From assembly GCF_016026235.1 (NCBI RefSeq), contig NZ_CP065613.1: a stretch of 64,000 nucleotides of DNA, one strand, 5' to 3'. Of this stretch, positions 1-46,109 are shown piece by piece. Under the pieces are notes generated by a model. That model was not told where the DNA came from. It saw only the letters and a program-made list of their open reading frames with translations, and made no database searches. How positions within the stretch are numbered: the stretch's first letter is position 1; each line of letters opens with the position of its first letter. The position numbers and the translations under genes are program-made. Source of the stretch: Escherichia coli (GTDB taxonomy: Bacteria > Pseudomonadota > Gammaproteobacteria > Enterobacterales > Enterobacteriaceae).

Positions 1-1
1 C

Positions 2-916
2 ATGAATCAAACTGTCGCGGTGACGGGCGCTACCGGTTTTATCGGTAAATATATTATCGATAACCTGCTCGCCCGCGGCTTTCACGTTCGCGCATTGACG
101 CGTACTGCCCGCGCTCACGTCAATGACAATCTCACCTGGGTGCGCGGTTCGCTGGAAGATACTCATTCACTTAGCGAACTGGTTGCCGGAGCCAGTGCGG
201 TGGTCCATTGCGCTGGGCAAGTGCGCGGACACAAAGAAGAGATTTTTACCCACTGTAACGTTGACGGCAGCCTGCACCTGATGCAAGCGGCAAAAGAGAG
301 CGGCTTTTGCCAACGTTTTCTGTTTATCTCTTCGCTGGCGGCGCGCCATCCCGAGCTCTCCTGGTACGCAAATTCCAAACACGTCGCCGAACAACGGCTG
401 ACTGCAATGGCTGACGAAATTACGCTGGGCGTTTTTCGCCCGACAGCCGTGTATGGTCCCGGCGATAAAGAGTTAAAACCGCTGTTTGACTGGATGCTGC
501 GCGGCCTGCTGCCACGACTTGGTGCACCAGATACACAGCTCTCTTTCCTGCACGTCACCGATTTTGCGCAAGCAGTGGGTCAGTGGTTAAGCGCCGAAAC
601 TGTACAGACGCAAACCTATGAATTATGCGATGGCGTCGCTGGCGGCTATGACTGGCAACGCATACAGCAACTTGCCGCCAACGTCCGTTGCGGTTCCGTG
701 CGAATGGTTGGTATTCCTCTGCCGGTACTCACCTGCCTTGCGGATATCAGTACCGCGTTGAGTCGCCTGGCAGGTAAAGAACCTATGCTGACCCGCTCGA
801 AAATTCGTGAATTAACCCACGCCGACTGGTCGGCAAGTAATAACCGTATTTCTGAAGATATTAATTGGTTTCCCGGGATTAGCCTGGAACACGCATTACG
901 CAACGGGCTATTTTGA
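2..916 (+). CDS. NAD(P)-dependent epimerase/dehydratase-family (extended SDR) reductase
   Basis: 304-aa ORF; N-terminal Rossmann motif VTGATGFIGK; YANSK (YxxxK) catalytic motif; start codon at 2-4. Confidence 0.8.
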   Translation: MNQTVAVTGATGFIGKYIIDNLLARGFHVRALTRTARAHVNDNLTWVRGSLEDTHSLSELVAGASAVVHCAGQVRGHKEEIFTHCNVDGSLHLMQAAKESGFCQRFLFISSLAARHPELSWYANSKHVAEQRLTAMADEITLGVFRPTAVYGPGDKELKPLFDWMLRGLLPRLGAPDTQLSFLHVTDFAQAVGQWLSAETVQTQTYELCDGVAGGYDWQRIQQLAANVRCGSVRMVGIPLPVLTCLADISTALSRLAGKEPMLTRSKIRELTHADWSASNNRISEDINWFPGISLEHALRNGLF

Positions 917-947
917 TTGTCTTGTTTAAAGGTGTGTTAACGTTTCT

Positions 948-1196
948 ATGGTAAATCGTGAAATAGTAATGGATTACATCCTTTCCTGTTTACAGGATTT
1001 GGTCGAAAACGGTGTGGAAATTAAGCCCGACAGCGATCTCGTCAACGATCTTGGCCTGGAGTCGATCAAAGTGATGGATCTCTTAATGATGCTGGAAGAC
1101 AGATTCGATATTTCCATTCCTATTAATATTCTGCTGGATGTCAAAACCCCTGCGCAATTAATGGAAACTCTACTTCCATGGCTGGAGAATAAATAA
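948..1196 (+). CDS. acyl carrier protein-like small acidic protein
   Basis: 82-aa ORF; DLGLESI motif resembling the ACP phosphopantetheine attachment site (DSL); stop overlaps start of next gene. Confidence 0.65.
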   Translation: MVNREIVMDYILSCLQDLVENGVEIKPDSDLVNDLGLESIKVMDLLMMLEDRFDISIPINILLDVKTPAQLMETLLPWLENK

Positions 1197-2368
1197 TGGG
1201 GCTATACGATAAATATGCGCGCCTTGCTGGCGAGCGACTGCAATTTAGTGACAACGGGTTAACACCGTTTGGCACCTGTATTGATGAAGTGTATTCCGCC
1301 ACCGAAGGCCGGATCGGCAATAAAAAAGTGATTCTGGCCGGGACCAATAATTATCTCGGTTTAACCTTTAATCATGATGCCATCAGCGAAGGTCAGGCAG
1401 CGTTAGCGGCCCAAGGCACCGGCACCACCGGTTCTCGTATGGCAAACGGCAGTTATGCGCCGCACCTGGCGTTAGAGAAAGAGATTGCCGAGTTTTTCAA
1501 TCGCCCTACCGCTATCGTTTTTTCAACCGGTTATACCGCTAATTTAGGCGTCATCAGCGCACTTGCCGACCATAACGCCGTGGTGTTACTGGATGCCGAC
1601 AGCCACGCCAGTATTTATGACGCCTGTTCTCTCGGTGGCGCGGAAATTATTCGTTTCCGCCATAACGATGCTAAAGATCTGGAACGGCGCATGGTTCGCC
1701 TCGGTGAACGGGCGAAAGAGGCGATTATCATCGTTGAGGGCATCTACAGCATGCTCGGTGACGTTGCGCCGCTGGCGGAAATTGTTGATATCAAACGTCG
1801 TCTCGGTGGTTATTTGATTGTCGATGAAGCGCATTCGTTTGGCGTGTTAGGCGCAACAGGGCGCGGACTGGCTGAAGCTGTCGGCGTTGAAGATGATGTG
1901 GATATTATCGTTGGTACTTTCAGTAAAAGTCTGGCCTCGATTGGCGGTTTTGCTGTCGGTTCGGAAGCGATGGAAGTGCTGCGCTACGGCAGCCGCCCGT
2001 ATATTTTTACCGCCTCTCCTTCTCCGTCCTGCATTGCGACCGTGCGCTCGTCGTTAAGAACTATTGCCACACAACCAGAGCTGCGGCAAAAGCTGATGGA
2101 TAACGCCAACCATCTGTATGACGGTCTGCAAAAACTGGGTTATGAGTTAAGTTCACATATTAGCCCGGTAGTGCCAGTAATAATCGGTTCGAAAGAGGAA
2201 GGTTTACGCATCTGGCGCGAGCTTATCTCGCTGGGCGTGTATGTGAATCTTATCCTGCCGCCTGCCGCGCCTGCAGGCATCACGCTGCTGCGCTGTAGCG
2301 TAAATGCTGCCCACAGTCGTGAGCAAATCGATGCCATCATTCAGGCATTTGCTACTCTGAAGCAGTAA
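1196..2368 (+). CDS. PLP-dependent alpha-oxoamine synthase family acyltransferase (BioF/Kbl/serine-palmitoyltransferase-like)
   Basis: 390-aa ORF; conserved VDEAHSFG and GTFSKSL (PLP-binding Lys) motifs typical of class-II aminotransferase alpha-oxoamine synthases. Confidence 0.85.
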   Translation: MGLYDKYARLAGERLQFSDNGLTPFGTCIDEVYSATEGRIGNKKVILAGTNNYLGLTFNHDAISEGQAALAAQGTGTTGSRMANGSYAPHLALEKEIAEFFNRPTAIVFSTGYTANLGVISALADHNAVVLLDADSHASIYDACSLGGAEIIRFRHNDAKDLERRMVRLGERAKEAIIIVEGIYSMLGDVAPLAEIVDIKRRLGGYLIVDEAHSFGVLGATGRGLAEAVGVEDDVDIIVGTFSKSLASIGGFAVGSEAMEVLRYGSRPYIFTASPSPSCIATVRSSLRTIATQPELRQKLMDNANHLYDGLQKLGYELSSHISPVVPVIIGSKEEGLRIWRELISLGVYVNLILPPAAPAGITLLRCSVNAAHSREQIDAIIQAFATLKQ

Positions 2369-2373
2369 TGTGA

Positions 2374-2401
2374 GCCCGCCGTGGTGTTTGCGCCACGGCG
2401 G
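2374..2401. terminator. bidirectional stem-loop between convergent operons
   Basis: inverted repeat cccgccgtgg / ccacggcggg with 8-nt loop, followed by ttt. Confidence 0.5.
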
Positions 2402-2403
2402 GT

Positions 2404-3483
2404 TTAATGTTGTCTGTCATACCAATACACCAGGCTCAACGCCACCAACACAAACGCTACCGGTAAACCGAGCGCGGTAACAGGTGCGCTTAACGCAAAT
2501 AGCAATCCCAGATTAACCATGATTTGATAGCTGATCCAGGTGAGTAAGCCCACGATGACGCCTACAGCGAGACGGCTACCCATCCCAGGCGAACGCGGGG
2601 CAGTAAAGGTAAACGGCACAGCCAGCAAAATCATCGCCAGGGTCAGGATGGGTTGCCCCAGTTTTTCCCACAGTGCAAGGCGGTATTCGCTGCTGGGTTG
2701 CCCGGTTTCCTGCAAATAATGGATGTAATGATTAAGCTGACGGACAGAAAAAGTATTCCCCGGCATTGATAACTCTTCAAGATTCATACTGGTGAAGGCC
2801 GATTGCCAGGCAAGATTATCTAATGTTTCCAGCGTTTCTTTGCCATTCAGCCATTTTTTATGATTCACACCATGCAGGACCCACGTTTTGTCGTCTTTAA
2901 TGGTGGCACTGCGTGCATAAATGTAGGATTCAAGCGAGAGATCGTCGGGATAATGAAATATCTCCACGCCCACCGGCTGGCCCTGCTCGTTCAGCGATTT
3001 CACCGTCACAAATTCATTACCACGCCTGGCCCACAGCATATTGCCGGTAATGTCATCGTCCTCCCCCAACGCGGTGGCGGTCGATTTGATTTGCAGCGCC
3101 TGTTGCTGCAATGGCGACGCCACCCACTCATCTATCGCGCCTAACGAAACAGTCCACAATATCCCGGCAACCAGCGCCACCAGTGCAATACGGAAGATAG
3201 AAAACCCCGTGCTGCGAATGGCGGTAAGCTCACTGTTTTTCGATAACTGCCCCAGGCCAACAATCCCTCCCAATAAGGCGATAAACGGCGAAAGTTCGAC
3301 CAGTGTGCGCGGTAAGGTCATTAGCACCACCAGCACCGCCTGAGTCCAGCGATAACCGCCCGGGCTGACATCATCCAGTTCGTTAATCAGGTTGAAGGTG
3401 GTAAAAAGCGGCAGCAATAGCCCTGCGGCGGCGGCAAAACCGAGAAAGAGATGACGGATTAAATAGCGACTGAAAACATTCAT
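2404..3483 (-). CDS. LptG-like (YjgP/YjgQ family) permease paralog
   Basis: ORF 2404-3564; likely start at internal Met (MNVFSRYLIRHLF) giving a 4-bp overlap with the upstream gene; multi-TM protein with C-terminal similarity to LptG. Confidence 0.7.
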   Translation of the reverse strand: MNVFSRYLIRHLFLGFAAAAGLLLPLFTTFNLINELDDVSPGGYRWTQAVLVVLMTLPRTLVELSPFIALLGGIVGLGQLSKNSELTAIRSTGFSIFRIALVALVAGILWTVSLGAIDEWVASPLQQQALQIKSTATALGEDDDITGNMLWARRGNEFVTVKSLNEQGQPVGVEIFHYPDDLSLESYIYARSATIKDDKTWVLHGVNHKKWLNGKETLETLDNLAWQSAFTSMNLEELSMPGNTFSVRQLNHYIHYLQETGQPSSEYRLALWEKLGQPILTLAMILLAVPFTFTAPRSPGMGSRLAVGVIVGLLTWISYQIMVNLGLLFALSAPVTALGLPVAFVLVALSLVYWYDRQH

Positions 3484-4550
3484 CGGGAAAATTTCTGCAG
3501 CAAAGAGAAGTCGCGTGCGACCAGCATCAGCAGGCCCATTAGCATGAGTCCGGGTACTAACCACAAACCAGGAATGAGGGGAATCGCGCCGTTAGCCACC
3601 AGCGTACGGCAGACGTCGCCGCCATAAAAAATGGCAATAAACAGCAACGTCAGTGGCAATAATGTTGAAAATCGCCCTTGCCGCGGTTTTACCCGACTTA
3701 ATGAAATGGCCAGCAGCGCCATCAACAATGCTGTCAGGCCACGGCTTTGCCGCCATTGCAGTTCGGCATGATCGGCAGGAAATACAGAGCGTGCCAGCTC
3801 CGTGACCGATTTTGCTTTGCGTTTGACGTTAGGGCTTTGATCCAGCGGATTCAGATGTAATTGCAGATTACGGTAGATCTGTTCATTGTCGTCACGCCCC
3901 TGATGATCGAGAAGATAGGCAGTGCCGTTGTGCAACATAACGGTCGGTTTCTCGGGTGATGGGTCAACCACATCAACCGAACGGGCGCGGAAAATGCGGG
4001 TTCGATTGGCAGTAGAAGTATAAATCAGCGCGTCAGTCAGGCGATTATTATCCTGATCAACCGTCTGCGAAAGGATCATTCGTCCGTTATCGTTAGTGTT
4101 AAATTTCTTTGCCCGCAACTGGCGAACATCCAGCTCCGACTGCGACTGCTGCTCCAGTTGATAAATCTGCGCATAAGCCCACGGACGACCATACATCGAC
4201 AGAAGGGTGACAAAAATACTTAGCGGTATCGCCAGATAAAGAACGGCTTTGTACAAGCGTCCCGGACTGCCCCCCGCCGCAGAGATAGCGGTAATTTCCG
4301 AGTCGGTATACATCTGCCCTAGCGTCACGCCAACTGACACATACAGACCAACAGGTAACAACATCTCCAGTGCAATCAGCACTTTGTAGAAAACGATATC
4401 CAGCACAACATCAAGAGCTAATGTCCCATTTGCCGCTTCGGTCAGATAACGCTGTGCGGAGTAGCTGGCGAAAATAAAGATCAGAAAACCGACGATAATC
4501 AGCACCAGACGGCGCGTACCACGCATGATGTAGTGTTCAACCAGCTTCAT
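3480..4550 (-). CDS. LptF-like (YjgP/YjgQ family) permease paralog
   Basis: 356-aa ORF; motif LGQMYTDSEITAISAAG resembling the conserved LptF/LptG segment; multi-TM. Confidence 0.7.
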   Translation of the reverse strand: MKLVEHYIMRGTRRLVLIIVGFLIFIFASYSAQRYLTEAANGTLALDVVLDIVFYKVLIALEMLLPVGLYVSVGVTLGQMYTDSEITAISAAGGSPGRLYKAVLYLAIPLSIFVTLLSMYGRPWAYAQIYQLEQQSQSELDVRQLRAKKFNTNDNGRMILSQTVDQDNNRLTDALIYTSTANRTRIFRARSVDVVDPSPEKPTVMLHNGTAYLLDHQGRDDNEQIYRNLQLHLNPLDQSPNVKRKAKSVTELARSVFPADHAELQWRQSRGLTALLMALLAISLSRVKPRQGRFSTLLPLTLLFIAIFYGGDVCRTLVANGAIPLIPGLWLVPGLMLMGLLMLVARDFSLLQKFSR

Positions 4551-4580
4551 CTCACTAACGCCCTCAATCCTTTGAATTTT

Positions 4581-5144
4581 TTATTCATTGATCAGTTTCT
4601 GCGCCAGCGCAATGACATGATCTACCTCTTCCGGCGTCAGGCTGCCGTCCTTTGCCCACTGAATTTGCCCGGTTTTATTCAGCACCAGAATGGTTGAACT
4701 CTGCTCCGGCAAGCGCCAGGCAACGCGTCCCTGTCCATTGCCGTCAATAACGAATTGCGCCCACGGATAGCGGCGTTTATTTTTTTCGATTTTGCCAACG
4801 ACAAAATAGCCAGTACCAAAGATGGCATCATCAGTGTTCACAATGGTGGTGGGCTGAAAACGATCCTGTGGAAAGTTTGCCGCTTCAACCGCTTTAATTA
4901 ACAGTGAGTTCTTCTTCTTCGCTGACTTACGCCCGGCGATATACTGGATAATGCGGACTTTTCCCGCCAATTGTGTGCTGTTCCACTTTTGGTAGTGAAT
5001 TTCGTCGTCGCTATTCAGAAGCAGCTCGCCGCCTTCCTGAATATAAACAGGGGTAACCGTTTTGCCAGTGACGAAATTGTGTGCCTGCACACCCGGGGCT
5101 AAGAGCATGATAATCAGCGCAATAATCAAACGAGATGACATCAT
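4581..5144 (-). CDS. secreted/periplasmic protein of unknown function
   Basis: 187-aa ORF with an N-terminal signal-peptide-like segment (LIIALIIMLLAPGVQA). Confidence 0.5.
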   Translation of the reverse strand: MMSSRLIIALIIMLLAPGVQAHNFVTGKTVTPVYIQEGGELLLNSDDEIHYQKWNSTQLAGKVRIIQYIAGRKSAKKKNSLLIKAVEAANFPQDRFQPTTIVNTDDAIFGTGYFVVGKIEKNKRRYPWAQFVIDGNGQGRVAWRLPEQSSTILVLNKTGQIQWAKDGSLTPEEVDHVIALAQKLINE

Positions 5145-5152
5145 TGCTCCGG

Positions 5153-5977
5153 TTATAGCGGAAAACGCGAAATCAGCAGCTCTAAGCGCTGGCGAATATC
5201 GCTATCCAGCGCCACCGGTGCATCATACGACTGGCGGTTTTCCATATCATCCGCCACCATGTCGTCGTGTTTATCCCCCATCAGGCCATTAATGGCGGCG
5301 AGGAAACGGGAAATCTGTAACGCCTCTTTATTTTCAGGATCAAGCGATCTTAAGGTGTCGTAATAAGAAACCTGCTGGCTGATGATTTTTCGCACATCAT
5401 GAAATTCCCTGCCGGTTAGTCGCGGTTTGGCAATTATCTCTTTCAGGGCATGCATTTGCTTTTGCCGATAGGCAATAAAACCGCTTACGCTTTCTAACTG
5501 GCTATGGCGTAATGAATAGTTCACCAACGACCAGACCGGAGAGCTTAAATAAATTCGTAACAGGTTGCCGTAATACGACACAATATTTTTCTTACCGTTA
5601 CGAAATCCGTCCTGAAAACGTCCCAGAAAAACGGTCGTTTTGCCGAATAAAAATCTGGCCTGATGCTTTTTTAAATACAGCCGTTGTGCAAAACGTAGAT
5701 GCTTGTAGCGCGCTCGCATGTATTTAAACTGTTTACGCTCGTCTGTCGTCAGCTCATCGCCTTTGGCTTGTTTGCGAATTAAACGAAGTAATTCCTGACG
5801 ATCAACGCCATTGAGCCAGAATTGCAGGCATAACGCGTAATTATCATGGATGATTTCGGTGGTACAACATAGTGCGATAGTCGGCGGCAAACTGACCTGG
5901 GCATCAACAACATCATCTTCCTCAATCGCAACAAATAGATGCTCGCTCGCCTCAAGCGGGAAATATTTTCTCATCAT
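5153..5977 (-). CDS. hypothetical protein (possible counterpart of the K-12 yghO pseudogene)
   Basis: 274-aa ORF, in operon orientation with flanking genes; no motif recognised. Confidence 0.45.
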   Translation of the reverse strand: MMRKYFPLEASEHLFVAIEEDDVVDAQVSLPPTIALCCTTEIIHDNYALCLQFWLNGVDRQELLRLIRKQAKGDELTTDERKQFKYMRARYKHLRFAQRLYLKKHQARFLFGKTTVFLGRFQDGFRNGKKNIVSYYGNLLRIYLSSPVWSLVNYSLRHSQLESVSGFIAYRQKQMHALKEIIAKPRLTGREFHDVRKIISQQVSYYDTLRSLDPENKEALQISRFLAAINGLMGDKHDDMVADDMENRQSYDAPVALDSDIRQRLELLISRFPL

Positions 5978-7326
5978 CAGGATTTCTCTCCGGCTGCGTT
6001 ATAAAGCAAGGAATGGCGCTGAAAAAAAGCCTTTAAGATCGGAATTAGCGAAAGCACCACATCCAGACATTGACCGCCGAAATAAGCAAACGCTGCTCCC
6101 AGCACGCCAAACAGATGACAGAACATGAACAGCAATACGATGTAGCCGATTGAGGCGATGGTTTGCGCCACGAGAAAAGCGCGCTGTTTTCCCGCCATCA
6201 ATAGCAATGACTCCTGAGGGAAGCCCAGCATCGAGATCACAATTGCGCCCAGCATCACCTGAATCAGGTCATACGCTTCGAGATACTTAACGCCAAACAC
6301 CAGCGAAATGAGCGGCTTGCCGACGATCAACACCGCGAGCGCCACCAGAATACCGATTCCGCCCGCCAGTAAACCGGACTTCACACCTAACAACCACGGT
6401 CTGGTGGTGCGCGGATCTAAACGCATCACCTCTGGGTAAAAACTTTTACCCAGCAAACCCGCTGGCGTTCCGGCGGCGTCGAAGAATGTCATGGCGATTT
6501 TAAATAACCCGGCGACAGCGGGTCCTAACACGATCCCCACCAACACTGTGCTGCACGAGTTACGCGCCGACCAGATGGAGTGGGCAATGTTGGTTGACCA
6601 GACAAAACTCCACGCGCCTTTAATGTGTCGGGCAGACTCAAACAGATTCAATTTGAAGGCGTTATGGATATTTCTGCGGCGTAATTCGCGCGCGGCAAAC
6701 CACCAGTACATGGTGCCGCCAACCAGATTCGACACGTACCAGGCAATAACAAAACCCGCAAAACCAAAGTCAAAATACCAGGCTGCGACGCTCCCCGCTG
6801 CGCGCAGAAAAGGTTTCGTCGCCTGCTGTACAGCAATCAAATCAAAGCGATCTACCGCACGCAGAATGCCGGTCGGCGTGGAGGAAGCCATTGAAGGAAT
6901 GAGCGTGCAATACAGCGCTGCCAGCCAAAAGCTTTGGTCATCCAGACCTAATGAATGGGAAAGAAAAGGGAGTAAGGCAATGCCGCCGACAATCGCCACC
7001 GCGCCGCTGACGATATCCAGCGAGAAGGAAAATGAGACGACATTGCGAAATTGCTGCGGATTATTGTTGGTTAATGCTGGTGTTCCGTACTGAACCACCA
7101 GCTGCCATGTCTGAAACTTAATAAAATCGCTGATCGACTTGGCGTACGATTGCACAATCACCAGTACGCCAAACATGGCGGGCGTCATCCCTTTACCGGC
7201 ACACGAGAGCGCCAACAGACCCAGCAAGGCGCTCACGACATTACTGGAGCCTAACCAGGCGCTATTGCGAATAATGGTGCGAAACGCGCCATCTGCAAAC
7301 CAATGTTTGATGTTAAAACCCGCCAA
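5977..7326 (-). CDS. yghQ: polytopic inner-membrane protein, flippase-like (polysaccharide-biosynthesis/MOP type)
   Basis: 449-aa highly hydrophobic ORF; position immediately before yghR as in K-12. Confidence 0.6.
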   Translation of the reverse strand: MAGFNIKHWFADGAFRTIIRNSAWLGSSNVVSALLGLLALSCAGKGMTPAMFGVLVIVQSYAKSISDFIKFQTWQLVVQYGTPALTNNNPQQFRNVVSFSFSLDIVSGAVAIVGGIALLPFLSHSLGLDDQSFWLAALYCTLIPSMASSTPTGILRAVDRFDLIAVQQATKPFLRAAGSVAAWYFDFGFAGFVIAWYVSNLVGGTMYWWFAARELRRRNIHNAFKLNLFESARHIKGAWSFVWSTNIAHSIWSARNSCSTVLVGIVLGPAVAGLFKIAMTFFDAAGTPAGLLGKSFYPEVMRLDPRTTRPWLLGVKSGLLAGGIGILVALAVLIVGKPLISLVFGVKYLEAYDLIQVMLGAIVISMLGFPQESLLLMAGKQRAFLVAQTIASIGYIVLLFMFCHLFGVLGAAFAYFGGQCLDVVLSLIPILKAFFQRHSLLYNAAGEKS

Positions 7327-7371
7327 TTCAGCCTGACCTTATCGTTGATAGTAAAAAGTATCCCGCCAGCC

Positions 7372-8130
7372 TTAAGTTAAACTTCGGCGGTCAGAAACGA
7401 TGGCAACCAGAGAAACCGCCTTCTGTGCCTGTTCCAGCACTTCGCTGTAGGGCGCTCTGGAATCAATCTCAAGAATTTTTGTGCCGTTATAGCCAATCGT
7501 CGACATAACACTGATTTTGTCCTGCAGCTCGGCATAGTCATGGTCAGGCTTGCGGGAGATGGCAGTCTCAATATCAATGCCCAGGCGAATAATTAATTCC
7601 GGGCGATATTGCGCCATTTGTTGGTATAAACGCCGTTCGCGCTGCGCCAGAAACATGCTGATTTTCCCGGTCGCACGTTCGACGCCAATCCCCGGTCCGT
7701 CATAATAAAAGCCCGAAATTTCAGCCTGCGGGAAGCGATCGCTGACCACCAGAACGCCACTTTGCGCCAGTCGCTGAACCTTGCGTAGATTCGCCATTCT
7801 TCGCAGCGAGAAGCAGTACATAATCACCGCCGCCCATAGCGCCGGAGATTTGGTTTTCATGCTTTGGGTTTTCGAGGATTTGGCCGCCAGTCGCCGTTCC
7901 AGCCAGACGCCAACCAACGGCAATCGTTTGATTTTGTCGCCGTCTTCGCCGGAGAGCAGCCCCAAATAGCGGCGCTCGGTTTGCCAGTGTTGTTGCAGCG
8001 ATTTCACCAGGTCGGTGGTCAGTGTGGATTTACCGGTGCCATCACACCCGACCACCGCAATCAGCCCCGGAATGTAGTTGGGCTGCGGCGCGGTTGTACT
8101 AATAACAGTTTGTGTTTGTAGTGCATCCAT
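7372..8130 (-). CDS. yghR: P-loop ATP-binding protein
   Basis: 252-aa ORF; Walker A VVGCDGTGKST; paralog of the next two genes. Confidence 0.7.
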   Translation of the reverse strand: MDALQTQTVISTTAPQPNYIPGLIAVVGCDGTGKSTLTTDLVKSLQQHWQTERRYLGLLSGEDGDKIKRLPLVGVWLERRLAAKSSKTQSMKTKSPALWAAVIMYCFSLRRMANLRKVQRLAQSGVLVVSDRFPQAEISGFYYDGPGIGVERATGKISMFLAQRERRLYQQMAQYRPELIIRLGIDIETAISRKPDHDYAELQDKISVMSTIGYNGTKILEIDSRAPYSEVLEQAQKAVSLVAIVSDRRSLT

Positions 8131-8161: not shown

Positions 8162-8875
8162 TCAAGAAAGCGCGGCGTGAATTGCGCGTAGTGACGCTTG
8201 CAGAATTTCATCGGCTGGTTGCCGACCATCCAGTTCAAGGATCTTTGCGCCATTGAATGTCAATTGCGGCGTAACGGCGATTTTTTCCTGTAACGCTGCC
8301 AGTTGGTGGTCAGGTTTACGCGCAAACGCGGTTTGTTCATCAATGCCAAGACGAATCAACAATACGGGTAAATAAGACGCCATCCATTGGTACAGCTTCA
8401 ACTCGCGCTGCCTTAACATTTTTATCCAACCGTTACCGCCCGTGGTTTTTGCCAATTGCGGGCCATCAAAGCGAAAACCCGGCACTTCAACCTGCGGGTA
8501 GCGGTCGGTGATGAGCAGATGGCCTTGCTGGCTTCTACACAACATTTTGCGAAACTTGTACGCCCGCCAGCAGGAAAGCAGATAGATAACCAGCGCAGTA
8601 ATATTGCCAGGCGGTGTTGAGGGCTTTTCGTGCACATGTGCCGCTTTACTTCGCAGATAACGCCCAAAAGGTGCGCCAATAACAGGGAGCTGTGAAATCC
8701 ATTCGCCAATTCGCCCGGACGATTGCCCGAGATAAATGCGTTCTGTTGGCATTCTTGCTGCCAGTTCATTTACCAGGCTTGCCGTGAGGGTCGATTTACC
8801 TGAACCATCACATCCTACAATGGCAATAACACGCACTGGCGTGGAATTAATTATTGACATATTACGTTGATTCAC
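8162..8875 (-). CDS. yghS: P-loop ATP-binding protein
   Basis: 237-aa ORF; Walker A IVGCDGSGKST; shared DRYPQ and RKPDH motifs with yghR/yghT. Confidence 0.7.
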   Translation of the reverse strand: MNQRNMSIINSTPVRVIAIVGCDGSGKSTLTASLVNELAARMPTERIYLGQSSGRIGEWISQLPVIGAPFGRYLRSKAAHVHEKPSTPPGNITALVIYLLSCWRAYKFRKMLCRSQQGHLLITDRYPQVEVPGFRFDGPQLAKTTGGNGWIKMLRQRELKLYQWMASYLPVLLIRLGIDEQTAFARKPDHQLAALQEKIAVTPQLTFNGAKILELDGRQPADEILQASLRAIHAALS

Positions 8876-9048: not shown

Positions 9049-9741
9049 ATGCAGTCAATAACACCTCCATTAATTGCCGTTATTGGTAGCGATGGTTCAG
9101 GCAAGTCAACGGTGTGTGAACATCTCATTACCGTTGTCGAAAAATATGGTGCTGCCGAAAGAGTTCATTTAGGAAAACAAGCCGGAAATGTCGGTCGTGC
9201 AGTGACAAAATTACCGTTGATGGGAAAATCCTTACATAAAACAATTGAACGAAATCAGGTGAAAACAGCAAAAAAATTGCCAGGACCAGTTCCGGCGCTG
9301 GTAATTACAGCGTTTGTCGCCCGTCGCTTACTGCGCTTTCGTCATATGCTTGCCTGTCGTCGTCGCGGGTTAATTGTTCTAACCGACCGTTATCCTCAGG
9401 ACCAAATTCCTGGCGCTTACGATGGTACGGTGTTCCCACCTAACGTTGAAGGTGGTCGTTTTGTCTCATGGCTGGCAAGCCAGGAACGTAAAGCGTTTCA
9501 CTGGATGGCGAGCCATAAGCCTGATCTGGTCATCAAACTCAATGTCGATCTAGACGTGGCCTGCGCGCGTAAGCCTGACCACAAAAGGGAATCGCTGGCA
9601 AGAAAGATAGCCATAACGCCACAGTTAACCTTTGGTGGTGCACAACTGGTTGATATCGACGCCAATCAGCCACTGGAACAGGTGTTAGTTGATGCAGAAA
9701 AAGCGATTACGGATTTTATGACCGCGCGTGGTTATCACTAG
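9049..9741 (+). CDS. yghT: P-loop ATP-binding protein
   Basis: 230-aa ORF; Walker [12 protein letters not shown]; divergent from yghS. Confidence 0.7.
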
Positions 9742-24473: not shown

Positions 24474-24594
24474 TCAACATATCCGTTAAACCTTTGTCGC
24501 ATAATTCTGAGGTTTAGGGATCTTCCTGGTTCCCTTATCAACGCATCGAGAGCGTCTACCCTTAAAGGACGTTGAACCTGAAGGGAGAAAAACG

Positions 24595-25479
24595 ATGTCT
24601 CATTTAAAAGACCCGACCACGCAGTATTACACTGGTGAATATCCCAAACAGAAACAACCGACGCCAGGCATCCAGGCGAAGATGACACCGGTACCGGATT
24701 GCGGCGAGAAAACCTATGTTGGTAGCGGTCGCCTGAAAGATCGTAAAGCACTGGTGACAGGGGGCGATTCCGGAATAGGTCGCGCTGCCGCCATCGCTTA
24801 CGCGCGTGAAGGGGCTGACGTGGCGATCAGTTATCTTCCCGTGGAAGAAGAAGACGCTCAGGATGTGAAAAAGATCATTGAAGAATGCGGTCGCAAAGCC
24901 GTTCTGCTGCCAGGCGATTTAAGCGATGAGAAGTTTGCCCGTTCGTTGGTTCACGAAGCGCATAAGGCGTTAGGCGGGCTGGATATTATGGCGCTGGTCG
25001 CCGGGAAACAGGTTGCCATTCCTGATATTGCAGACCTCACCAGCGAACAGTTTCAAAAGACCTTTGCCATTAACGTTTTCGCGCTGTTCTGGCTAACCCA
25101 GGAAGCGATCCCCCTGCTACCGAAAGGTGCAAGTATCATCACCACTTCGTCAATCCAGGCATACCAGCCAAGTCCGCATTTACTGGACTATGCGGCTACG
25201 AAGGCGGCGATTCTGAACTACAGCCGTGGCCTGGCAAAACAGGTCGCGGAGAAAGGTATTCGGGTGAATATTGTCGCGCCAGGCCCTATCTGGACGGCAC
25301 TACAAATTTCCGGCGGACAAACGCAGGATAAGATCCCGCAGTTTGGTCAGAAAACGCCGATGAAGCGTGCGGGGCAACCGGCGGAACTGGCCCCAGTATA
25401 TGTTTATCTGGCAAGTCAGGAGTCGAGCTACGTCACCGCAGAAGTGCACGGTGTGTGCGGCGGCGAGCATTTAGGTTAA
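24595..25479 (+). CDS. yghA: short-chain dehydrogenase/reductase
   Basis: 294 aa; GGDSGIGRA Rossmann motif. Confidence 0.85.
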
Positions 25480-43186: not shown

Positions 43187-44532
43187 AATTTACCCAACGT
43201 CTTAGTCTGCGCGTCAGGCTGACGCTAATCTTTTTAATTCTGGCCTCGGTGACCTGGCTGCTTTCCAGCTTTGTCGCCTGGAAACAAACAACGGATAACG
43301 TCGATGAATTGTTCGACACCCAACTGATGCTGTTTGCCAAGCGGTTAAGTACGCTCGATCTCAACGAAATCAACGCGGCGGATCGCATGGCACAGACGCC
43401 AAATAAATTAAAACACGGTCATGTTGATGACGATGCGCTGACCTTTGCCATCTTTACCCACGACGGCAGAATGGTCCTTAACGATGGCGATAACGGAGAA
43501 GATATTCCTTATAGCTATCAACGGGAAGGTTTTGCTGACGGGCAACTGGTGGGCGATAAAGATCAATGGCGTTTTGTCTGGATGACCTCACCTGATGGCA
43601 AATATCGCATCGTTGTTGGTCAGGAATGGGAATACCGTGAAGACATGGCGCTGGCGATTGTTGCCGGGCAATTGATCCCGTGGCTGGTCGCACTGCCGAT
43701 TATGTTAATCATCATGATGGTACTATTGGGTCGTGAACTCGCTCCGCTGAACAAACTGGCGCTGGCGCTGCGTATGCGTGACCCTGACTCGGAAAAACCA
43801 CTAAACGCGACTGGCGTACCCAGCGAAGTGCGTCCGTTGGTTGAGTCGCTAAATCAACTGTTCGCCCGCACACATGCGATGATGGTTCGTGAACGACGCT
43901 TTACCTCCGACGCAGCTCACGAACTACGTAGCCCGTTAACGGCGCTGAAAGTGCAAACCGAAGTTGCGCAGCTTTCTGACGATGATCCGCAAGCGCGGAA
44001 AAAAGCGCTGCTTCAATTACATTACGGGATCGATCGCGCTACTCGTCTGGTTGATCAACTGCTCACTCTATCGCGGCTGGACTCACTGGATAACCTTCAG
44101 GACGTCGCGGAGATCCCGCTTGAAGATCTCCTGCAATCGTCGGTGATGGATATTTACCACACGGCGCAGCAGGCGAAAATTGACGTGCGACTGACACTCA
44201 ATGCCCACGGCATCAAACGCACCGGACAACCGCTATTGCTAAGTTTGTTGGTGCGAAATTTGCTGGATAACGCCGTGCGCTACAGTCCACAGGGCAGCGT
44301 GGTAGACGTCACGCTGAATGCTGATAACTTCATCGTGAGGGATAACGGCCCCGGTGTGACACCAGAGGCACTGGCGCGAATTGGCGAACGCTTCTATCGC
44401 CCACCCGGACAAACCGCTACCGGCAGCGGGCTTGGGCTATCGATTGTCCAGCGAATCGCCAAATTGCATGGCATGAATGTTGAATTTGGGAATGCGGAAC
44501 AAGGTGGATTTGAGGCGAAGGTAAGCTGGTAA
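43183..44532 (+). CDS. qseC: two-component sensor histidine kinase
   Basis: 449 aa; H-box HELRSPL; 4-bp overlap with qseB. Confidence 0.9.
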
Positions 44533-44540
44533 CTTCTCTG

Positions 44541-44573
44541 TCTATGAGAGCCGTTAAAACGACTCTCATAGAT
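44541..44573. terminator. bidirectional stem-loop between qseC and ygiZ
   Basis: ctatgagag / ctctcatag inverted repeat followed by attttact. Confidence 0.5.
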
Positions 44574-44577
44574 TTTA

Positions 44578-44910
44578 CTAATAGCAAAATATAAACCGTC
44601 CCCAAAAAAGCCACCAACCACAAACCAGACAAATACCGAGCGAGAATACATATACCCAAAACTCGAACATTTCCCGCATAAAGAGTTTTCTTAAGATAAG
44701 AATAATAAGTGGCGTAAGAAGAAAAAATGCTGCAATCATTGCTTGCAATATACGATCTTCGCCTGAAACGGAAGGTATACTGCAAATATTGCCTCCCGAG
44801 TCAAGCATCCAGTCATACTTATTGAAAGCAAAAAAAGCATCTATTAACCAATAAGTAAGCATTATGTATAATAATGCTTCAAATATTGATAGTAGTTGTT
44901 TTTTTAACAT
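44578..44910 (-). CDS. ygiZ: small three-TM inner-membrane protein; candidate immunity protein for the upstream effector
   Basis: 110 aa, AT-rich, 6 bp downstream of the effector-like gene on the same strand. Confidence 0.7.
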   Translation of the reverse strand: MLKKQLLSIFEALLYIMLTYWLIDAFFAFNKYDWMLDSGGNICSIPSVSGEDRILQAMIAAFFLLTPLIILILRKLFMREMFEFWVYVFSLGICLVCGWWLFWGRFIFCY

Positions 44911-44916
44911 GTCTGA

Positions 44917-45627
44917 TTACTCATTAATCAATTTTTTGATATGTTCTCTAATCTCTAACAACCTCATACCATAAGAGATGAATTTATAATCATCTGTATC
45001 ACGCGCAGGCAAATTATTAATTAAATAAATAAAAAACCCCAAATCTCGTTCAACACCACGATTATATCTAATACCAGCCATAATATACTGCTCATTCGTC
45101 ATATACAGTGTTGCCGAAGAGGGATAATCAAAAAGGGCAAGATCTCTTAAATGAGTAGCAGCAATTTGAAACGTAAAATCATCTTCCATTAGGCATGTCG
45201 CTAACTCTAACTGATTTCTGGTAGTTAATTCTGAAGGGTCAAGACCTAGAGTAATCGCTGCGGTTCGTATTTGTATACCCATTGAGCCAAATGATGTTTT
45301 ATTTTCAGGCATATCTAACAATCCAATCATTCTTTTTGTTTCATATATCTGAAACTTATAATTTTCAGGCATACCTCCTGACTCAATCCAGGCCACACCG
45401 CCCAGTAACTCTGGACGAATCCCAGCGGCATATGCATGTTTAATTATTTTGTCCCTATTATATTGTACATATGCATCTTTATAAGCATTTAAATAATATA
45501 CTCCCGAACGGCGACGCGAATCATTTTTTCCTAACTTCCAGAGTAAAACGTCCATTTCATCCCATTTACGGAACTTAGTTTGTGGAATTGTACAATAGCT
45601 ATTTTTTATAGTGAGATCGCTTTTCAT
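44917..45627 (-). CDS. candidate T6SS cargo effector with lysozyme-like / lytic-transglycosylase-like motifs
   Basis: ORF 44917-45654; AT-rich; motifs AWIESGG, SMGIQIRTAA and AGIRYNRG resemble the ES / GLMQ / AYNAG motifs of SLT domains (weak, by eye). Confidence 0.45.
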   Translation of the reverse strand: MKSDLTIKNSYCTIPQTKFRKWDEMDVLLWKLGKNDSRRRSGVYYLNAYKDAYVQYNRDKIIKHAYAAGIRPELLGGVAWIESGGMPENYKFQIYETKRMIGLLDMPENKTSFGSMGIQIRTAAITLGLDPSELTTRNQLELATCLMEDDFTFQIAATHLRDLALFDYPSSATLYMTNEQYIMAGIRYNRGVERDLGFFIYLINNLPARDTDDYKFISYGMRLLEIREHIKKLINE

Positions 45628-45629
45628 AT

Positions 45630-46109
45630 TTAAAAAACCCTTTCTTCCCAACAACTATATGATTCCGTACTCGCGATATGGTGCTTCCATGTTATATTTT
45701 TATAATTAAGAACAATAACCTCTTCCGGTTGATTACCCGCATGTGTAATTGAGTGTGGATAACAAGTCAGAATATTCGATAAATGTGCCCCTTGCAATTC
45801 AATTGTGTAAAACCTTTCAATACAACCGCCAGAATTAATTCTATAAAAATTAAATATAGCTGATAACTCTTCATTTTCAGAAAGAGCAGCATTTAATAAA
45901 GGGGAGGATTTATCTATTGGCTTGTAAAATTTTATGGGGTGATGCACTACATTATATTCTCGACTTAAAGAATGGTCGAACTGCAAAACAAAAATTTCAT
46001 CCACATGATTTATTTGATATTTATTACCAATAGATGCATACGAACCACAGCCCTCAGAGATCAAACCTTGTGTTTTCCCTTTAATTGATAAGTATATGAT
46101 ATTTGACAT
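45630..46109 (-). CDS. hcp: Hcp-family type VI secretion tube protein (orphan)
   Basis: 159 aa; alignable along its length to enterobacterial Hcp1, including the C-terminal NYKNITWKH...SYSCWEE block. Confidence 0.8.
   Translation of the reverse strand: MSNIIYLSIKGKTQGLISEGCGSYASIGNKYQINHVDEIFVLQFDHSLSREYNVVHHPIKFYKPIDKSSPLLNAALSENEELSAIFNFYRINSGGCIERFYTIELQGAHLSNILTCYPHSITHAGNQPEEVIVLNYKNITWKHHIASTESYSCWEERVF

Follow-up and report, generated by a model that had tools for sequence, protein, structure and literature searches.

A second LptF/LptG-type permease pair in the sphingolipid locus of Escherichia coli, a probable partner of LptB

A 64,000-nucleotide stretch of Escherichia coli DNA (NCBI RefSeq assembly GCF_016026235.1, contig NZ_CP065613.1; this whole stretch is called the window below) carries, at positions 2404..4550, two overlapping genes for LptF/LptG-family permeases, lptF2 and lptG2. 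The surrounding genes are the E. coli sphingolipid locus, and in our view the pair probably provides the transmembrane half of an extractor devoted to this locus's lipid product and powered by the housekeeping ATPase LptB. An earlier note, made from the letters of the window, had proposed that the two permeases would have to borrow an ATPase encoded elsewhere or act differently and could extract a lipid other than lipopolysaccharide (LPS); the sphingolipid context was not noticed there. The neighboring genes that encode an acyl carrier protein (ACP), a serine palmitoyltransferase, a CerR-like reductase and an acyl-ACP synthetase, together with yghO, support the proposal of a non-LPS substrate and indicate a sphingolipid. 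A second pair that borrows an ATPase for a non-LPS lipid has already been published for the homologous pair of Caulobacter, and the E. coli pair has already been described, at the bioinformatic level, as sphingolipid-locus LptF2/LptG2. Here, we report the family and pairing of the two proteins, their locus context, the absence of a dedicated ATPase across their clade, the conservation of the docking glutamates and the purifying selection on the pair.

The LptF2/LptG2 pair

The two genes are as follows.
3480..4550, minus strand: lptF2, F-type LptF/LptG-family permease of 356 amino acids (aa), the upstream gene of the pair
2404..3483, minus strand: lptG2, G-type LptF/LptG-family permease of 359 aa, the downstream gene of the pair

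They are codirectional, and the stop of lptF2 overlaps the start of lptG2 as ATGA. The mechanical open reading frame (ORF) of lptG2 begins at GTG 3564; the Prokaryotic Genome Annotation Pipeline (PGAP) starts the gene at ATG 3483, from which the product has the 359-aa length common to all homologues. Membership of the YjgP/YjgQ family, as claimed in the earlier note, was confirmed with Pfam PF03739 (LptF_LptG), which matched LptG2 (E = 2e-68) and LptF2 (E = 9e-54, residues 7-345) over the whole model (model positions 1-352 and 2-352 of 353 for the pair). On their best NCBIfam models, LptF2 scored 318 bits (TIGR04407; cutoff, 230 bits) and LptG2 scored 306 bits (TIGR04408; cutoff, 240 bits); K-12 LptF and LptG scored 385 and 456 bits on the same models.

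Subunits were typed by reciprocal BLASTP with K-12 proteins taken from the genuine lptF-lptG locus. LptF2 was 29% identical to K-12 LptF (E = 2e-22) and matched K-12 LptG only at an E of 0.1, and LptG2 was 28% identical to K-12 LptG over 350 aa (E = 2e-38), with no match to LptF. The resemblance to LptF and LptG noted earlier therefore holds in pairwise alignment, and on these alignments the F/G assignment of the pair is unambiguous. The alignments span residues 3-355 of solved LptF chains for LptF2 and residues 3-351 of solved LptG chains for LptG2, the periplasmic segment included in both, and the predicted architecture fits that of solved LptF/LptG (transmembrane [TM] helices with a periplasmic beta-jellyroll between TM3 and TM4). 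This is a second pair, as had been supposed, since the canonical lptF-lptG genes lie elsewhere in the genome, where they adjoin pepA in K-12. The NCBIfam LptF and LptG equivalog models take in the sphingolipid-locus paralogues as well, and thousands of genomes are therefore annotated with two lptF and two lptG genes; for the second pair, the RefSeq label "LPS export permease" overstates knowledge of its function.

The ratio of nonsynonymous to synonymous divergence (dN/dS) of the pair against other Escherichia lineages was 0.04-0.065, and the pair is therefore under strong purifying selection. Two further observations concern variation in these genes. The synonymous divergence (dS) of the pair between the window and the GTDB species-representative E. 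coli SCPM-O-B-8794 was high (0.25-0.52), and across the pair most E. coli genomes reach an identity of only 95-99%; the locus may exceed the core genome in diversity, or it may be recombining. A 456-aa E. coli protein annotated GspC has PF11356 fused to the C-terminal 72% of LptG2, which suggests that in some strains a deletion has fused gspC, a type II secretion gene, to lptG2.

Simpson et al. reportedly identified, in 2016, E84 of LptF and E88 of LptG as the coupling-helix glutamates that contact the nucleotide-binding domain (NBD). Glu85 of LptF2 aligns with the former and Glu85 of LptG2 with the latter, and the residue was invariant in 86 LptF2 and 86 LptG2 sequences. No other part resembles the canonical paralogues as closely as the coupling-helix segment does, at about 52% and 39% (manual count on the K-12 LptF and LptG alignments) versus 29% and 28% overall. 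Such conservation fits a predicted docking of the pair onto the same NBD.

The cavity is less uniform. Basic residues that hold the lipid A phosphates and inner core have been located in Shigella/E. coli LptFG (LptG K34, K40, K41, K62, R133 and R136; LptF R33, K317 and K322; PMC6744409). Four of these positions stay basic in the pair (LptG K62 as R, LptG R136 as K or R, LptF R33 as R, and LptF K317 as R or K), and five lose the basic residue (LptG K34 to N, K40 to D, K41 to D and R133 to L; LptF K322 to N); LptF K30 is likewise replaced by a neutral or acidic residue. Replacing K by D at LptG positions 34, 40 and 41 hampers LPS transport in E. coli (PMC9544173). The lipid A/core-binding positions vary family-wide, however, and acidic residues at LptG 40 and 41 are common, so the loss of K34/K40/K41 was dropped as proof of a non-LPS substrate. 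As read from the alignments, the losses hint only weakly at a head group that is smaller and carries a different charge.

Set beside canonical E. coli LptB2FGC (lptF, b4261; lptG, b4262; lptB, b3201; lptC, b3199), the pair belongs to the same full-length fold family and shares the F-before-G gene order with overlap, the coupling-helix Glu and several basic cavity residues. It differs in sequence (28-29% identity), in being nonessential and absent from K-12, and in its linkage to sphingolipid genes, whereas canonical lptFG is linked to pepA.

Related loci and the search for an ATPase

LptG2 homologues at 60-75% identity, each named LptG in its source, occur in Escherichia albertii, Hafnia, Shimwellia, Citrobacter, Pseudocitrobacter, Pluralibacter, Serratia, Erwinia, Pantoea, Sodalis and others. 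An exhaustive representative search placed matches at 37-51% identity in a tier above the general LptG background, and every member of that tier that was looked up (from Pseudomonas, Methyloversatilis, Arhodomonas and uncultured bacteria) lay within an spt-ACP-epimerase-AMP-ligase locus. LptG2 of E. coli and that of Pseudomonas were 51% identical without gaps (344 bits), and either one scored about 145 bits against canonical LptG structures, that of P. aeruginosa included; LptG2 therefore belongs to a distinct paralogue clade and does not stem from a recent duplication.

A clade motif ([VIA][EDQ]L[GAS]PFI[AVG]LL), scanned over one genome per species, returned 80 loci from Enterobacterales, Pseudomonas, Azotobacter, Stutzerimonas, Nitrococcus, Methyloversatilis and Nitrosomonadaceae. 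The scan recovered clade members from gamma- and betaproteobacteria only, with no alphaproteobacterial member. Seven loci from protein look-ups were added, and the resulting 87 loci were compared by tblastn. F2 lay directly upstream of G2 on the same strand in 87/87 loci, and at least one homologue of YghO, AasR, CerR, AcpR or Spt was found in 79/87; the eight loci without a ceramide-synthesis homologue are all represented by 10.5-17.6 kb of DNA, short of the full 21 kb. The YghO homologue lay 0.3-5.8 kb from the pair and was the sole linked synthesis gene in Nitrosomonadaceae.

The tblastn comparison found no LptC or LptA homologue in the 87 loci, and a stand-alone LptB-like NBD adjoined the pair in none of them. 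The only recurring ATP-binding cassette (ABC) gene encodes a fused MsbA-like protein of about 575 aa (ABC_membrane plus ABC_tran), which adjoins spt in Pseudomonas and betaproteobacteria (e.g., L011, 1..233; L012, 15019..16731). The Pseudomonas and betaproteobacterial loci with this fusion are without a YghQ-type MOP protein, and the fusion probably fills the flippase role that YghQ may have in E. coli. More generally, the F2/G2 pairs of Pseudomonas, Methyloversatilis, Arhodomonas, Nitrococcus and Nitrosomonadaceae (annotated LptF/LptG; 30-59% identity to E. coli LptG2) resemble that of E. coli in the clade motif, the F2-G2 order and the linked yghO-like, aasR, cerR, acpR and spt genes. Genes for a CDP-alcohol phosphatidyltransferase, DAGK_cat, a nucleotidyltransferase and a metallophosphatase occur in these non-enteric loci and not in that of E. 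coli, and many of the loci have the MsbA-like fusion; where they differ, E. coli has YghQ, the P-loop proteins YghR, YghS and YghT (YghR/S/T), a CHAD-like protein and a YtfJ-like protein. It is speculation that this Enterobacterales-specific gene swap means a different head group, possibly a phosphate-rich one.

In one genome labelled Martelella alba, an alphaproteobacterium, the locus is of Enterobacterales type: its LptG2 is 66% identical, and the YtfJ-like, CHAD-like, YghQ and YghR/S/T genes are all present. The label may be wrong, the assembly contaminated or the locus recently transferred.

As the earlier note had stated, no LptB-like gene lies near the E. coli pair. Over its first 9 kb the window matches strain FDAARGOS_943 at 100% identity. 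A six-frame scan of the window gave no ORF with both a Walker A motif and an LSGGQ-type signature, and the RefSeq annotation of the identical genome has no ABC ATPase gene in the window or in the 12 kb to its left, a flank that contains the fatty acyl-AMP ligase gene, yghO and the glc operon; an ATPase gene beyond the left edge was thus rejected over these 12 kb. Among ORFs of >100 aa in the window, Walker A motifs were confined to YghR, YghS and YghT. These were rejected as the missing ATPase on two grounds: they are without an ABC signature and have sub-threshold kinase similarity, and they are absent from most non-enteric F2/G2 loci (from Nitrosomonadaceae and from most Pseudomonas loci that carry F2/G2). 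A DNA-level search found lptB as a single full-length copy per genome in 5425/5426 complete E. coli genomes, the other matches being short stretches of unrelated ABC genes such as tauB.

A comparable arrangement is known from Caulobacter, in which CC_1168, CC_1156 and CC_1155 were named LptC2, LptF2 and LptG2 and were proposed to export a phosphosphingolipid (Olea-Ozuna et al., PMC11324152). According to a recent preprint (Uchendu, Isom and Klein, bioRxiv, April 2026, 10.64898/2026.04.12.717747), Caulobacter lptC2/F2/G2 tolerate deletion only in strains that have lost spt or cpgB, the pair is essential when the anionic sphingolipid is made, LptF2/G2 copurify with each other and with the sole LptB, and the genome holds no lptB duplicate. 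The same authors found lptF2 and lptG2 in numerous sphingolipid loci of alpha- and gammaproteobacteria, and their Fig. 2B draws that of E. coli UTI89 as homologous. Like the E. coli pair, Caulobacter crescentus LptF2/LptG2 (CCNA_01214/CCNA_01213) is a second F-plus-G PF03739 pair besides the canonical one; both pairs lie within an spt/bCerS locus near a bCerS-type gene, and neither locus has an ATPase. By analogy with the Caulobacter pair and its copurification with LptB, the E. coli pair would have to borrow an ATPase, in agreement with the earlier proposal. Unlike that of Caulobacter, the E. coli locus is without LptC2, DAGK_cat and CDP-alcohol transferase genes, and its head-group genes encode YghR/S/T, the CHAD-like protein and the YtfJ-like protein, in contrast to the cpg genes of Caulobacter. 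No Caulobacter protein from the sphingolipid locus was found in the PDB.

Power might instead come from another ABC ATPase or from YghR/S/T, with a sphingolipid still as the substrate. Three P-loop genes in the same locus speak for this, as do the origin of the LptB interaction data in Caulobacter rather than E. coli and the restriction of our LptB paralogue search to the DNA level. We nonetheless regard it as unlikely, given that YghR/S/T combine the lack of an ABC signature with sub-threshold nucleotide-kinase similarity and are missing from the Nitrosomonadaceae and most Pseudomonas loci that have F2/G2, that the LptB-docking Glu is invariant, that none of the 87 loci links a conserved stand-alone NBD to the pair, and that Caulobacter F2/G2 bind LptB.

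Surrounding genes and loss in K-12

The features around the pair, from left to right, are as follows.
Just left of the window, plus-strand operon: aasR, fatty acyl-AMP ligase
2..916, plus strand: epi/CerR homologue (CerR-like reductase) of the NAD-dependent epimerase/dehydratase family (annotation and profile match)
948..1196, plus strand: acpR, specialised acyl carrier protein (PGAP call; PF00550 PP-binding on orthologues)
1196..2368, plus strand: spt, serine palmitoyltransferase (NF047599, 600 bits; cutoff, 500 bits)
2371..2406: 16-pair GC-rich hairpin between the convergent spt and lptG2 stops (35-bp gap)
4581..5144, minus strand: YtfJ-family periplasmic protein, directly upstream of lptF2 (TIGR01626, 213 bits)
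5153..5977, minus strand: 274-aa hypothetical protein with a CHAD-like, all-alpha predicted fold, in Enterobacterales loci only
5977..7326, minus strand: yghQ, MOP-flippase-like membrane protein and candidate flippase (Pfam Polysacc_synt in orthologues)
7372..8130, minus strand: yghR, P-loop protein (Walker A; sub-threshold dTMP-kinase similarity)
8162..8875, minus strand: yghS, P-loop protein, first gene of its operon (Walker A)
9049..9741, plus strand: yghT, third P-loop paralogue, divergently transcribed (Walker A)

The pair ends a minus-strand operon (yghS-yghR-yghQ-hypothetical-ytfJ-like-lptF2-lptG2; intergenic gaps of -4 to 45 bp), which is convergent with the plus-strand operon aasR-cerR-acpR-spt; yghO lies further left. 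The hairpin between the two operons is possibly a bidirectional terminator. A promoter-like site upstream of yghS, at 8953-8925, is only a weak consensus match. This gene set as a whole is kept at 60-85% amino acid identity across many Enterobacterales genera.

The synthesis genes correspond to ECD_02850-02854 of BL21(DE3), which are aca (yghO), aasR, epi, acpR and spt (Padilla-Gómez et al., PMC9386255); epi is ECD_02852, the acpR counterpart is ECD_02853, and yghO is listed as an aca/bCerS homologue. In that study, E. coli AcpR was shown to bear phosphopantetheine and to be acylated by AasR, and Spt to prefer acyl-AcpR (PMC9386255). Spt matched Sphingomonas serine palmitoyltransferase structures at an E of 2e-111, and AcpR was sub-threshold on the NCBIfam ACP models (best score, 35.6 bits; cutoff, 71 bits).

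The Walker A motif of YghR/S/T reads G[CS]DG[ST]GKS, and the three proteins scored 22-32 bits on the dTMP kinase model (curated cutoff, 83 bits); they may act on the lipid head group. RefSeq calls YghS and YghT "dTMP kinase" despite these far-below-cutoff scores. The YtfJ-like protein has a signal peptide and zero cysteines and adjoins lptF2 in Enterobacterales only. Its predicted fold is thioredoxin-like (Foldseek, E of about 2e-7 to DipZ, ResA and TlpA), from a model of lower confidence (predicted local distance difference test [pLDDT] score, 72). This protein and the 274-aa hypothetical protein were considered as substitutes for LptC or LptA and rejected, their predicted folds being thioredoxin-like and CHAD-like and not a beta-jellyroll.

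Among 5426 complete E. coli genomes, 4105 carry the pair (at least 80% of 2.1 kb covered; 95-100% identity), with the ORFs intact in those 4105, and about 24% are without it. K-12 lost the locus by an IS5-linked deletion: MG1655 has IS5 (insH9) flanked by a yghO whose end is altered and a yghQ truncated at its 5' end, at a site (6147..7341 of the K-12 stretch compared) that matches 1..7326 of the window, where the element replaces aasR, cerR, acpR, spt, lptG2, lptF2 and the ytfJ-like and CHAD-like genes. Missing from K-12 and from about 24% of genomes, lptF2 and lptG2 are not the essential housekeeping pair of the genome.

It might be argued that the E. coli locus is a silent relic and the pair inactive under natural conditions, a view that agrees with the IS5-linked loss in K-12, with the quarter or so of genomes without the pair and with the lack of any report of an E. 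coli sphingolipid in the literature searched. Set against it are ORFs intact in 4105 genomes, a dN/dS of 0.04-0.065, the 60-85% identity of the gene set across Enterobacterales genera and the activity of the E. coli AcpR, AasR and Spt enzymes, which together make a relic quite improbable.

Two features elsewhere in the window were also recorded. The RefSeq annotation of the strain flags yghA (about 24583..25467) as a pseudogene with an internal stop. Between mdaB and qseC, at about 44000..46000, GC content drops to 0.40 (about 0.51 elsewhere); ygiZ, a hypothetical gene and an orphan type VI secretion gene of the Hcp family fall in this stretch.

Proposed mechanism and meaning

If the pair is indeed an LptB-powered extractor of the sphingolipid-locus product, the pathway would run as follows. 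AasR would load a fatty acid onto AcpR, Spt would condense the fatty acid with serine, and the ceramide would be completed by the bCerS-type N-acyltransferase that yghO encodes together with the CerR-like reductase. Head-group chemistry would follow, probably through the Enterobacterales-specific YghR/S/T and CHAD-like proteins, and YghQ would probably flip the lipid across the inner membrane. LptF2/LptG2 would then use their cavity and beta-jellyroll domains to extract it from the outer leaflet of the inner membrane, with power from the housekeeping LptB dimer docked on the conserved coupling helices, and the lipid would probably pass on to the standard Lpt bridge. Sphingolipid transport by the E. 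coli pair, its use of LptB and all steps past the inner membrane are inferred.

The RefSeq names imply a spare or specialised exporter of LPS or of a modified LPS/lipid A variant, and both proteins do exceed the NCBIfam equivalog cutoffs (318 versus 230 bits; 306 versus 240 bits) and retain the coupling helix and several basic cavity residues, but this is very unlikely, because the pair is linked to ceramide-synthesis genes in 79/87 loci from four lineages, scores below the K-12 proteins (385 and 456 bits) on the same models, has N/D/D at LptG K34/K40/K41 (a weak point, acidic residues at 40 and 41 being common in the family) and is dispensable in K-12 and 24% of strains, canonical lptFG being the essential pair within the seven-protein Lpt system.

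Several points weigh against a sphingolipid extractor that runs on LptB. The LptB-binding data come from Caulobacter; the homology of the two pairs is taken from Fig. 2B of the preprint, and, as the head-group genes of the two loci differ, the charge and toxicity of the substrate may differ from those in Caulobacter. A divergent LptB-like ATPase could escape a paralogue search made at the DNA level only. K-12 and about 24% of genomes do without the pair, so any role must be conditional. The literature searched held no report of a sphingolipid in E. coli, nor of yghQ tied to a sphingolipid.

A bolder proposal, which we put forward only tentatively and think has rather less than an even chance, is that most wild E. 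coli and many Enterobacterales make an as yet undetected outer-membrane sphingolipid with an unusually phosphate-rich head group, exported by an LptB2-F2G2 complex that competes with LPS for LptB and the Lpt bridge. The head group would be made or handled by the three P-loop proteins and the CHAD-like protein, CHAD being a polyphosphate-binding fold. If this is true, K-12 hid such a lipid from decades of E. coli lipid research.

About three quarters of sequenced strains, BL21 and UTI89 included, have a lipid pathway that K-12 is without, and the RefSeq naming of both pairs as lptF and lptG makes genomes appear to hold duplicated LPS exporters. On the reading preferred here, of a sphingolipid extractor powered by LptB, the Lpt machine would serve more than LPS, and one ATPase may power two lipid extractors, which would bear on drugs that target LptB2FG and on how outer-membrane composition is understood.

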